Source of the DNA: Escherichia coli
GTDB lineage: Bacteria > Pseudomonadota > Gammaproteobacteria > Enterobacterales > Enterobacteriaceae
NCBI RefSeq assembly: GCF_036507355.1
Contig: NZ_AP027881.1
DNA length: 6,346 nucleotides
Strand: one strand, 5' to 3'
Shown: in pieces, positions 590 through 6,346 of the stretch
How positions within the stretch are numbered: the first letter of the stretch is position 1
Layout of the letters: every line of letters starts with the position of its first letter
Program-made: the position numbers and the translations under genes
The notes under the pieces: model-generated
Told to the model about the DNA's origin: nothing
The model's input: only the letters and a program-made list of their open reading frames with translations
Databases searched by the model: none

Positions 590-817
590 ATCAAGGGATT
601 CGAAGTCATGCGAGCCCTGCGCAAAGGACAGGCTCGCCCCTGGTGCCTGCAGCCCGGCATCAGGGGCGAGGTGCGCCTTGTGGAGAGAGCTTTTGGCATT
701 GGGCCCTCGGCGCTGACGGAGGCCATGGGCATGCTCAACCACCATTTCGCAGCAGCCGCCTGATCGGCGCAGAGCGACAGCCTACCTCTGACTGCCGCCA
801 ATCTTTGCAACAGAGCC
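590..817 (+). mobile_element. Remnant (3' end only) of an IS6-family insertion sequence, distinct from IS26
   Basis: Frame starting at 590 translates to IKGFEVMRALRKGQA...GEVRLVERAF, matching the C-terminus of the IS26 transposase in this window (KGIEVMRALRKGQASAFYYGDPLGEMRLVSRVFEM) at protein but not nucleotide level. Stop at 761-763 is followed 54 bp later by TTTGCAACAGAGCC (804-817), 13/14 identical to the IS26 terminal inverted repeat, with the same stop-to-end spacing as IS26. Confidence 0.55.
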
Positions 818-938
818 CTTGCGCGCATACTCATGCATGCCGTAAAAACAGAGCCTGCGCGTTTCTGGCGGGTTTTCGGGTGGTTTGTTGCCTGTTTTAC
901 CGGTTTCCCGTCAGAAACGCCCTCAGAGCCTCTCAGGC

Positions 939-966
939 GGTGCACGCAAGGGATGTTATGGTAAAT
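939..966 (+). other. XerC/XerD-type recombination core, site 1 (GGTGCACGCAA-GGGATG-TTATGGTAAAT)
   Basis: 28-bp site: 11-bp XerC-like arm, 6-bp central region, 11-bp XerD arm identical to the cer XerD arm as I recall it (TTATGGTAAAT). One of three direct copies in the window. Confidence 0.75.
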
Positions 967-3333: not shown

Positions 3334-3361
3334 GGTGTATGCAGGAGATGTTATGGTAAAT
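3334..3361 (+). other. XerC/XerD-type recombination core, site 3 (GGTGTATGCAG-GAGATG-TTATGGTAAAT)
   Basis: XerD arm identical to sites 1 and 2; XerC arm and central region diverged; direct orientation. Confidence 0.7.
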
Positions 3362-4003: not shown

Positions 4004-4011
4004 CTAAAACG

Positions 4012-4112
4012 AAAAAACCGCCCTGCAAGGCGGTTTTTTCGAAGGTTCTCTGAGCTACCAACTCTTTGAACCGAGGTAACTGGCTTGGAGGAGCGCAGTC
4101 ACCAAAACTGTT
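4012..4112 (-). ncRNA. RNA I antisense copy-number control RNA, replicon 2
   Basis: Same reasoning as replicon 1 RNA I; terminator hairpin ACCGCCTTGCAGGGCGGT plus U-run at the 3' end. Ends approximate. Confidence 0.7.
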
Positions 4113-4693
4113 CGTTTAGTTTAGCCTTAACCGGCGCATAACTTCAAGACTATCTCCTCTAAATCAGTTACCAGTGGCTACCGCCAATGGCGATTTGTCG
4201 TGTCTTTCCGGGTTGGACTCAAGACGATAGTTACCGGAACGGGCGTGGTAGTCGGACTGAACGGGGGGTTCGTGCATACAGTCCAGCTTGGAGCGAACTG
4301 CCTACCCGGAACTGAGTGTCAGGCGTGGAATGAGATAAACGCGGCCATAACAGCGGAATGACACCGGTAAACCGAAAGGCAGGAACAGGAGAGCGCACGA
4401 GGGAGCCACCAGGGGGAAACGCCTGGGATCTTTAAGTCCTGTCGGGTTTCGCCACCACTGATTTGAGCGTCAGATTTCGTGATGCTTGTCAGGGGGGCGG
4501 AGCCTATGGAAAAACGCCCGCCGGGGCGTGGCCTTTTCGCCCTTGTCCTTAGCTTTCGTTATGCTTACCGTTACGTTATCTGCTTATCCTCCCTCCGCTC
4601 GCCGCAGACTCATGACCGAACGGAGTGAGCGAATGAGCGAGGAAGCGGAAAACAATCAGAACGTACAGTAAGCACTTTCGCGCCGGGGCCTTC

Positions 4694-4885
4694 ATGAACA
4701 AACAACAAAAGACAGCCGTTAACATGGCTAAATTCATCCAGGATCAGTCCCTGCTTCTTCTGGACAGGCTTAATGAGCTGGATCTGGATCATGAGGCTGA
4801 TTTCTGCGAGAAACTCCATGAGGATGCGGAACGCCTTTACCGAAGCCTGTCAGCGCGCCTGAATGAGCAGCAGGACGGTGCGTAA
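4694..4885 (+). CDS. rop: Rop/Rom (RNA one modulator) homolog, 63 aa
   Basis: Same length as pMB1 Rop, with clear similarity along the whole protein as recalled (MTKQEKTALNMARFIRSQTLTLLEKLNELDADEQADICESLHDHADELYRSCLARF vs MNKQQKTAVNMAKFIQDQSLLLLDRLNELDLDHEADFCEKLHEDAERLYRSLSARL here). Confidence 0.85.
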   Translation: MNKQQKTAVNMAKFIQDQSLLLLDRLNELDLDHEADFCEKLHEDAERLYRSLSARLNEQQDGA

Positions 4886-4898
4886 TGTCTCCGTTCTG

Positions 4899-4918
4899 GG
4901 TATTACCGGAGTAATACC
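4899..4918. repeat. Perfect hairpin/palindrome GGTATTAC-cgga-GTAATACC downstream of rop
   Basis: 8-bp perfect stem with 4-nt loop. A second palindrome with the same half-site, TATTACC-cc-GGTAATA, lies at 4957-4972. Confidence 0.6.
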
Positions 4919-5188
4919 GGCATCGCCTTAATTTTCATTGTCTTAGCGCTTAACATTATTACCCCGGTAATACCCACAATCCCTGTATTTTTTCTTTTTT
5001 ATTTATTTTTCATGAAGTTGCGATGAAAATCGCAGCTGCGTTAGGTGTATGACCATTTTGAGGTTGAAAAATAATCAACCATGGCGGGTGATTTACGCAG
5101 GTTAAGGGGAGATCGTGACAAAAAAAAGCGTTCCTCACTGTATCGTTCATGCCTGCATGAACGGGTTATTCTTCCTGACTACAGAATT

Positions 5189-5340
5189 ACATCGCTCCTT
5201 CAGTTCATACATCACTTTTACAACACTTTTACAACACTCCTTCGGCCTGTACATCACTTTTACAACACTTTTGCATCACTTTTACATCATTTATACATCA
5301 CTTTTACATCATTCCTTCAGCTCATACGTCACTTTCATCC
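5189..5340. repeat. Tract of roughly 11-bp tandem repeats (core ACAxCACTTTT), iteron-like
   Basis: Repeated units ACATCACTTTT / ACAACACTTTT / GCATCACTTTT / ACATCATTT across about 150 bp, bracketed by direct repeats CCTTCAGTTCATACATCACTTT (5197-5218) and CCTTCAGCTCATACGTCACTTT (5314-5335). The ORFs the track predicts here are repeat-translation artefacts. Confidence 0.7.
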
Positions 5341-5526
5341 TCTGTGCCATTTGTACATCACCCCCTTCCTGAACGTGCTGACAGCGGGTTTTCCGGCTGC
5401 GCCGGCAACGCTTCACGGCCACGCAATAAATTGCGTCCCCGTTCACCGTTTTCGGATGGGAAGAACGCCGGAAACAGGACTTCCCCTGGCTGAATGGTGT
5501 GAATTTCCGCGCTATGCACTTGCGCG

Positions 5527-6346
5527 GGCACTGTTGCAAAGTTAGCGATGAGGCAGCCTTTTGTCTTATTCAAAGGCCTTACATTTCAAAAACTCTGCTT
5601 ACCAGGCGCATTTCGCCCAGGGGATCACCATAATAAAATGCTGAGGCCTGGCCTTTGCGTAGTGCACGCATCACCTCAATACCTTTGATGGTGGCGTAAG
5701 CCGTCTTCATGGATTTAAATCCCAGCGTGGCGCCGATTATCCGTTTCAGTTTGCCATGATCGCATTCAATCACGTTGTTCCGGTACTTAATCTGTCGGTG
5801 TTCAACGTCAGACGGGCACCGGCCTTCGCGTTTGAGCAGAGCAAGCGCGCGACCATAGGCGGGCGCTTTATCCGTGTTGATGAATCGCGGGATCTGCCAC
5901 TTCTTCACGTTGTTGAGGATTTTACCCAGAAACCGGTATGCAGCTTTGCTGTTACGACGGGAGGAGAGATAAAAATCGACAGTGCGGCCCCGGCTGTCGA
6001 CGGCCCGGTACAGATACGCCCAGCGGCCATTGACCTTCACGTAGGTTTCATCCATGTGCCACGGGCAAAGATCGGAAGGGTTACGCCAGTACCAGCGCAG
6101 CCGTTTTTCCATTTCAGGCGCATAACGCTGAACCCAGCGGTAAATCGTGGAGTGATCGACATTCACTCCGCGTTCAGCCAGCATCTCCTGCAGCTCACGG
6201 TAACTGATGCCGTATTTGCAGTACCAGCGTACGGCCCACAGAATGATGTCACGCTGAAAATGCCGGCCTTTGAATGGGTTCATGTGCAGCTCCATCAGCA
6301 AAAGGGGATGATAAGTTTATCACCACCGACTATTTGCAACAGTGCC
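5527..6346 (-). mobile_element. IS26 (IS6 family), complete 820-bp copy
   Basis: 14-bp terminal inverted repeats GGCACTGTTGCAAA at 5527-5540 and its reverse complement at 6333-6346; length 820 bp; encodes the canonical Tnp26 sequence. The element ends at the last base of the window. Confidence 0.95.
5579..6283 (-). CDS. tnp26: IS26 transposase Tnp26, 234 aa
   Basis: Translation MNPFKGRHFQRDIILWAVRWYCKYGISYRELQEMLAERG...GEMRLVSRVFEM matches IS26 transposase as recalled. The track ORF carries a 6-codon upstream extension (MLMELH) that is probably not translated. Confidence 0.95.
   Translation of the reverse strand: MNPFKGRHFQRDIILWAVRWYCKYGISYRELQEMLAERGVNVDHSTIYRWVQRYAPEMEKRLRWYWRNPSDLCPWHMDETYVKVNGRWAYLYRAVDSRGRTVDFYLSSRRNSKAAYRFLGKILNNVKKWQIPRFINTDKAPAYGRALALLKREGRCPSDVEHRQIKYRNNVIECDHGKLKRIIGATLGFKSMKTAYATIKGIEVMRALRKGQASAFYYGDPLGEMRLVSRVFEM

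Follow-up and report, generated by a model that had tools for sequence, protein, structure and literature searches.

Tandem 11-bp repeats beside the rop gene of a small ColE1-type plasmid from Escherichia coli: a probable orphan copy of the StbA-type array of IncN origins of transfer

In plasmid R388 (IncW), the region from the nic site to the gene stbA contains TTGCATCAT repeats of 9 bp in two groups of five, with a spacing of 2 bp. These repeats, known as stbS, are bound by the StbA protein and are required for StbA-dependent plasmid stability and for the control of conjugation (PMC3098194; bioRxiv 10.1101/2022.04.29.490116). Stable binding needs at least two contiguous repeats, one StbA dimer covering two of them (bioRxiv 10.1101/2022.04.29.490116), and without StbA conjugation is 50-fold higher and the plasmid becomes unstable (PMC3098194). 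Besides this StbA–stbS system, direct repeats in the transfer origin (oriT) of IncN plasmids and ‘iteron-like’ repeats of a qnrB19 ColE-type plasmid are already known. The subject of the present analysis is a stretch of E. coli DNA 6346 bp long (contig NZ_AP027881.1), called the window below, which contains an array of 12 direct repeats with an 11-bp period at positions 5188–5364 of the + strand. The array is probably the repeat array of an IncN-type (R46/pKM101, MOBF) oriT module, on a small ColE1-type carrier without any transfer or stb gene; the tract can be regarded as an orphan copy of a known oriT-associated array of the StbA type.

A first-pass annotation of the window had placed about a dozen tandem copies of an 11-bp unit at 5189–5340, between rop (4694–4885) and IS26 (5527–6346). 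Both the number and the location hold, and the tract is real, its true span being slightly longer. With one mismatch at most, TACATCAC occurs 12 times on the + strand of 5188–5361; over the whole window and both strands there are 14 matches, compared to 3.2 expected, and 14 was reached in none of 200 shuffles. Tandem Repeats Finder reports period 11 at 5208–5311, with 9.6 copies, 74% matches, a score of 110 and the consensus TACATCACTTT. The 12 units start at 5188, 5208, 5219, 5230, 5250, 5261, 5272, 5283, 5294, 5305, 5325 and 5354, at spacings of 20, 11, 11, 20, 11, 11, 11, 11, 11, 20 and 29 bp. They form contiguous runs of three (5208–5240) and six units (5250–5315, + strand, containing TTGCATCAC at 5271–5279) at exactly 11 bp; the other three units are isolated. 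The core is TACA[T/A]CA, and its positions T1, C3 and C6 are invariant in arrays of this type, as they are in IncN arrays. Three ‘long’ 20-bp units (TACAnCnnTCCTTCrG...) within the array are the source of the 22-bp direct repeat that had been described as bracketing the tract. This repeat is present but imperfect, with 20 of 23 positions alike between 5188–5210 and 5305–5327 and a third, weaker copy at 5230–5252 (16 of 23). A search of 5100–5420 for inverted repeats returned none, and a promoter scan of 4850–5560 gave no promoter-like site; the sole stems in the terminator scan of the latter interval belong to an oriT palindrome described below. The Rfam scan of the whole window matched two RNAI genes only and nothing in the repeat tract.

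The core of an IncN (R46/pKM101/pCU1)-type oriT lies upstream of the array, at 4895–5161 on the + strand. It aligns collinearly with R46 in MAFFT and is matched at E=2.1e-26 by an nhmmer profile of oriT cores to which only four plasmids with stbA contributed (R46 and one plasmid each of the IncN-like KPC, IncR/IncFIA and IncFIA kinds); small plasmids and the direct repeats were excluded from it. Core and array together make up a module at about 4895–5364. A blastn comparison of the module with R46 gives 138 bp at 69.6% identity (E=1.8e-4). The two share the order of two GTATTACC/GGTAATAC-type inverted-repeat pairs, an AT-rich stretch, a hairpin, GCTGCGTTAGGTGTAT, GGTTAAGG, AAAAAGCGTTC, a palindrome with TCATGCNTGCATGA and then the 11-bp array. 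The first inverted-repeat pair of the window, GGTATTAC..GTAATACC (4899–4918), is aligned with GTATTACCAAAGTAATA of R46, and the second, TATTACC..GGTAATA (4958–4973), with AATACCTAATTATTACC.

The relaxase recognition hairpin TGCGAT-GAAA-ATCGCA (5019–5034, + strand) stands directly 5′ of the nic box, a position common to the window, R46, the IncN-like plasmid L009 and R388 (GCGCACC-GAAA-GGTGCGT). The nic box, GCTGCGTTAGGTGT/AT with the slash marking the predicted nic, occupies 5035–5050 of the + strand; its 16-mer GCTGCGTTAGGTGTAT is identical in R46, L009, NZ_CP035538 and NZ_CP060739 and occurs once in the window, where 0.04 occurrences are expected. The segment 5019–5050 shows the MOBF arrangement of a hairpin followed by TAG and GGTGT, with the nic before AT. 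By analogy with GTCT/ATAGC of R388 and with the layout of the pCU1 oriT (hairpin, TAG, pentanucleotide; PMC2943615), the predicted nic falls between 5048 and 5049. The palindrome GTTCATGC-CT-GCATGAAC (5145–5162), which the terminator scan flagged as a stem, separates the nic box from the repeats. It is conserved: TCATGCNTGCATGA is found 106–109 bp past the nic box in the window, in R46, in L009 and in 10 of the 11 small-plasmid relatives examined; these 10 are all those with the exact nic-box 11-mer, and the distance was not taken for pGY1, whose nic box is the variant GGTTGCGTATGGTGTAT. A ColE1 bom-type oriT near 5480–5500 (CCCTGGCTGAATGG), an idea formed by eye, was dropped when the IncN nic box was found upstream.

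In R46, the intergenic region between oriT and stbA contains 13 TACA[T/A]CA units (20320–20492) spaced by 11 bp in sets of 5, 2 and 6, and the array ends 17 bp before the stbA ATG. Coupland et al. in 1987 reportedly described 13 direct repeats of 11 bp in the oriT of R46, and the same count of 13 was obtained here. The array of L009 has 10 units; the 12 units of the window have the core, strand and position of those of R46. Element order, nic box, palindrome distance, repeat core, period, strand and position are the same as in the IncN oriT of R46, pKM101 and pCU1. The window differs in having about 70% identity outside the nic box, in its CTTT spacers (mostly AAAA or AAAG in R46) and in the three 20-bp long units (..TCCTTCRG..) that interrupt its array, unlike that of R46. 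Unlike IncN plasmids, it also lacks a traK, traI and stbABC flank, the module being flanked by rop and an Xer site on a high-copy ColE1-type replicon. In pGY1 (870–995) and in Proteus plasmid pW47-2 (1501–1566), R46-type units, TACATCAAAAG and TACAACAGAAT, are mixed with the window-type TACATCACTTT, so arrays of the two types are linked by descent.

The closest characterised counterpart of the array is R388 stbS, a centromere-like site. Units of the window agree with the R388 consensus at seven to eight of nine positions (TTGCATCAC and TTACATCAT at eight, TTACATCAC, a commoner form, at seven). The motif is related to (T/C)TGCATCAT, the core TNCATCA being common to the window and R388; the R388 stbS core TGCATCA is one base away from TACATCA, and the unit at 5272 is the exact R388 core. 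The runs of three (5208–5240) and six units (5250–5315) at exactly 11 bp correspond to an array of the stbS/stbDR kind. The stbS repeats lie between the nic site and stbA and overlap the stbA promoter; in the window, the position relative to nic is kept, but no stbA follows. R388 stbDR (16290–16440) reads ATGATGCAA on the stbA-coding strand; with the nic box and stbA as reference, this is the reverse of the orientation in R46 and the window. For R388 stbS, roles in binding, in repression and in segregation have been demonstrated; for the array of the window they are putative.

StbA homologues are encoded by 1926 plasmids of PLSDB. The StbA proteins of R46 and R388 share an N-terminal DNA-binding domain, with 29% identity over 58 residues (E=4e-6). 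The repeat core varies with the StbA class, while the oriT scaffold is otherwise conserved. The core is TACATCA in R46 (IncN), TACACCAC, TACATCAC or TACGTCA in an IncN-like plasmid with a StbA 57% identical to that of R46, ACTACA[A/G]A in an IncR/IncFIA plasmid (51%) and an IncFIA plasmid (42%), and TGCATCA in R388 (IncW); the comparison left out an IncX1 locus (StbA 49.6%). Such covariation is the pattern expected of a protein–site pair and suggests, indirectly, that the array of the window may be a binding site for StbA. The large non-conjugative plasmids NZ_CP035538 (IncFIA/IncR, 1090–1470) and NZ_CP060739 (IncFIA, 1140–1470) combine an IncN-type nic box with a divergent stbA and have no relaxase nearby. 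Their 11-bp repeats have the differing core ACTACAGATAA/ACTACAAAAAG, repeat core and StbA class changing together.

Neither StbA (five classes) nor StbB nor TraK, intact or degenerate, was detected by tblastn (all E>1), whether in the window or in any of 12 relatives among small plasmids. Since these genes are undetected and the tract has no promoter-like site, the array could represent the site only as an orphan copy. The first-pass annotation had compared the tract to the iterons of a theta or rolling-circle replicon, to protein-binding arrays and to partition sites, considered it unexpected beside a ColE1 origin and suggested that a cognate gene might have been lost to the adjacent IS26. 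The general likeness survives in that the array is phased, non-coding and of a protein-binding type, with a centromere-like counterpart in stbS. Nor is its location surprising, as it belongs to an IncN-type oriT module found in hundreds of small ColE1-type plasmids. That the repeats are iterons of a second replicon, or a ParR/ParB centromere with its gene destroyed by IS26, is highly improbable. Short phased direct repeats in two sets do recall iterons and parC-type centromeres, and similar repeats in plasmid pAM1 were called ‘iteron-like’ by their authors. Iterons, however, adjoin a gene for a plasmid-encoded initiator, and in none of the 12 relatives, 2.1-kb circles included, does the array stand beside a rep or par gene; the window replicates by RNAII/RNAI, and the homologous array of R46 is away from the R46 replication origin, about 11 kb from repA.

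The IS26 insertion bears on the same question. The left copy of an 8-bp duplication around the IS26-containing insertion, CTTGCGCG, lies at 5519–5526 and the second copy at 815–822, while the flanks of the insertion are contiguous in pEC14-9 (1733–1743). If the window is circularly permuted, IS26 together with an 814-bp fragment (1–814) makes up a simple insertion with target duplication and no deletion beside the repeats. With the duplication intact and the flanks contiguous in IS26-free relatives, it follows that the insertion removed nothing, and these relatives have no stbA themselves; the suggested loss of a cognate gene to IS26 is thereby refuted. As for small plasmids, then, the repeats have no partner gene in any relative, the outcome by which the first-pass annotation would have taken the tract for a non-functional simple-sequence expansion. 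In conjugative IncN plasmids, however, stbA adjoins the homologous repeats, and the tract is therefore not a meaningless expansion of simple sequence.

Some part of the interval 4886–5545 (660 bp) is matched in 1660 PLSDB plasmids by megablast, and the repeat region in 425 by blastn. The latter represent 10 genera: Escherichia, Klebsiella, Shigella, Salmonella and six others. Plasmids with qnrB19, such as pEC14-9, are 100% identical to the window over 5150–5400. Circular relatives of 2.1 kb consist only of the ori, the module region, an Xer site and one to three small open reading frames (ORFs), including rop in the Klebsiella one; the array is also found in a 2105-bp Salmonella plasmid. Arrays of relatives have 12, 10, 9, 8, 7, 6 or 5 units, changing in whole 11-bp steps at central positions, with one unit at the start and three at the end fixed. 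Many small-plasmid relatives are labelled ‘mobilizable’ by MOB-suite. Its calls are inconsistent in spite of a common nic box, NZ_CP055060 and pKH2-5 being ‘non-mobilizable’ and pEC14-9 ‘mobilizable’.

This variation is also what would be expected of a passive relic, that is, an array inherited with a captured IncN oriT region, without function, expanding and contracting by slippage or unequal recombination. The range of 5–12 units among close relatives, the absence of the partner gene and the larger number of records that match some part of the interval (1660) than the repeat region (425) all speak for such a relic. It is nevertheless an unlikely explanation. On a high-copy plasmid, tandem repeats of no function should vanish quickly, but this array is kept in 425 records and 10 genera, with the same invariant core positions as in IncN arrays, and at least one adjacent pair of units, the fewest on which R388 StbA forms a stable complex, is always left.

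Another possible role is suggested by pSW200, a plasmid of the ColE1 family. Upstream of its RNAII promoter are 41 repeats of 15 bp, which bind the RNA polymerase holoenzyme; irrespective of their orientation, and also from a distance, they increase transcription of RNAI and RNAII by about 30% (PMC3628316). The repeats of the window would, by this account, bind host RNA polymerase via −35-like hexamers, feed the RNAI and RNAII promoters and out-compete incompatible ColE1-type plasmids that have no repeats. Like pSW200, the window has many short repeats in tandem on a plasmid of the ColE1 family, located outside the replicon and containing −35-like hexamers. TTTACA, matching TTGACA at five of six positions, occurs five times in the array, which has no complete promoter, and in a circular 2.1-kb relative the array is several hundred bp upstream of the RNAII promoter. 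The pSW200 mechanism was also cited in the 2023 paper on the qnrB19 plasmid pAM1, whose 5+2 11-bp repeats are termed iteron-like (PMC10454011). Judging from close relatives and from the description in that paper, the pAM1 repeats are very probably the same element as the array of the window; they were not connected there to the IncN oriT or to StbA. No paper making this connection was found within the literature covered, which was incomplete.

A role of the pSW200 type is quite improbable as the main explanation. The period is 11 bp and not 15 bp, and the origin is different: pSW200 has 41 × 15 bp and a mechanism of host RNA polymerase binding, whereas the array of the window has a traceable IncN origin. 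TTTACA is absent from the homologous R46 units, so the −35 likeness is not a conserved feature. Such a role could, however, coexist with that of an IncN-type oriT array.

The tract had also been described as not explained by any coding sequence. A 154-aa ORF (5081–5545, + strand) does run through the repeats into IS26, yet it is spurious. In eight relatives, translation from its ATG gives products of 82–215 aa in differing frames through the repeats, with the shifts due to a run of seven or eight adenines (5120–5127) and to 11-bp insertions and deletions. Situated after the nic region and before the palindrome, this run is A8 in the window and A7 in about half of the relatives, a difference that by itself shifts the frame. 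As the reading frame is not conserved, the ORF is not a gene. The view that the repeats encode a small repetitive protein has next to no chance of being correct, even though the ATG-started ORF covers the tract and a few records list comparable ORFs as hypothetical proteins; the ends and frames vary among relatives, and the copy in the window terminates within IS26.

The repeats, their non-coding nature, the homology and collinearity with the IncN oriT, the difference in core between StbA classes and the absence of stbA are established. StbA binding to the units, nicking at the predicted site and a benefit to the small plasmid are inferred from them. In conjugative relatives, the array is located directly upstream of stbA; its R388 equivalent, stbS, is cooperatively bound by the helix–turn–helix protein StbA, which in this way positions the plasmid on the nucleoid, represses the promoters of stbA and the leading region and restrains conjugation. 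In the mechanism proposed for the window, the TraI/TraK relaxosome of a co-resident IncN plasmid would nick the small plasmid between 5048 and 5049 and mobilise it. StbA of the helper would load on the sub-arrays of three and six units, and thereby provide the small plasmid with the relaxosome context of the helper; on a high-copy plasmid, such loading may merely complete the native relaxosome context. Plasmids that have only an oriT and borrow the relaxase of a helper are an established class, for which one study lists an ‘R46-like’ oriT family (PMC10123127). These pOriT plasmids (Ares-Arroyo et al., PMC10123127) are likewise small, with an oriT of the conjugative-plasmid type and no relaxase. 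The unit considered in that work is the oriT, with no mention, in the passages covered, of an accompanying array for a partition protein of the helper.

Several points weigh against the proposed explanation. StbA binding has been demonstrated in R388 only, the StbA of which has just the above 29% identity over 58 N-terminal residues to that of R46, and, with respect to stbA, the repeats of R388 occupy the other strand. The window units have the spacer CTTT, compared to the A-rich spacers of R46, and their affinity for a given StbA may differ. TTGACA, possibly the −35 box of stbA, is present inside the R46 and L009 arrays and absent from that of the window. The 2105-bp relative is down to five units with one adjacent pair, so a large array is dispensable. 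The single pair of records checked for co-residence of the array and an IncN plasmid, with neighbouring accessions, turned out to come from different strains. In one study, qnrB19 plasmids of this type could not be transferred from the isolates, which may or may not have contained a helper; MOB-suite gave a MOBP-type oriT call there, which is odd in view of the MOBF-type (IncN/W) nic box found here (PMC9101827).

A further and doubtful, if conceivable, role of the array is that of an orphan high-copy ‘sponge’, drawing StbA off a low-copy IncN helper. At 12 sites per copy and tens of copies per cell, the small plasmid would offer far more sites than the approximately 13 of the helper. Withdrawal of StbA would de-repress the stb and leading-region genes of the helper and free it from the StbA conjugation brake, and the mobilisation of the small plasmid itself would increase; the helper might also be destabilised through centromere-type incompatibility. 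Orphan centromere copies on a mobilisable element have been demonstrated for SGI1, the parS mimics of which hijack the ParABS system of IncC plasmids (PMC10954446). As in the window, a mobilisable element carries a centromere-like site of its helper and no gene for the binding protein. The differences are that SGI1 is an integrative element and not a high-copy plasmid, that the protein is ParB and not StbA, and that the SGI1 case was demonstrated experimentally, while the analogy drawn for the window is only hypothetical.

The remaining parts of the window reflect its composite structure. Gene rop (63 aa, + strand), directly upstream of the oriT module, is syntenic with WP_001041614.1 (Rop family) in NZ_CP055060 and pKH2-5. 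RNAI of the ColE1-type replicon carrying the module lies at 4009–4110 on the − strand (Rfam RF00106, 95.8 bits, E=1e-17). A second ColE1-type replicon has the same orientation, with RNAI at 1323–1423, also on the − strand. The replicons are repeated over 1348–1831 and 4035–4516, their RNAI/RNAII regions being 93–98% identical, and the window has the appearance of a cointegrate formed by two small, related plasmids. IS26 is complete (820 bp, − strand), 100% identical over its 820 bp to both IS26 copies of R46, and situated between the oriT/repeat module and the Xer site belonging to it. Its transposase matches an IS6-family model (E=2.5e-82) and is the only product recognised by NCBIfam among the other ORFs of the window. 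The fragment 1–814 ends in TTTGCAACAGAGCC, similar to an IS6-family terminal repeat and one mismatch from the IS26 end. Over 1–817, at least 99% identity is found in more than 5000 PLSDB plasmids, and ORF 127–588 is annotated as ‘DMT family transporter’. The 6346 bp of the window probably represent a complete circle that was opened at the IS26 end.

The backbone of the small plasmid resumes at 815–966 (+ strand), a region 98% identical to pEC14-9 1733–1884, and ends in the Xer core site GGTGCACGCAA-GGGATG-TTATGGTAAAT (939–966). Similar Xer-type core sites are present at 2882–2909 and 3334–3361. All three consist of a shared XerD half-site, TTATGGTAAAT, a 6-bp central region and differing XerC arms (GGTGCACGCAA, GGTGCGGGCAA and GGTGTATGCAG), which fits plasmid fusion and resolution at Xer sites. 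An Xer site inside the repeat tract was considered and rejected, the XerD half-sites being located at 956, 2899 and 3351.

This family of small ColE1-type plasmids is common in Klebsiella and, in Escherichia, Shigella and Salmonella, is a vehicle for the spread of qnrB19, sul2/strAB and tet(A). How such small plasmids move is often unclear; the IncN-type oriT names IncN plasmids as the likely helper, and about 550 PLSDB records contain the IncN type of StbA. The ‘iteron-like’ repeats thereby become a concrete, testable candidate for StbA binding. If StbA does not load on them, the tract is merely an inherited part of a borrowed oriT. If it does, plasmids of this family would show how, in nature, the combined segregation–conjugation switch of a helper is tapped or titrated by a mobilisable plasmid, and this would bear on the stability and transfer rates of helper plasmids in the epidemiology of resistance.

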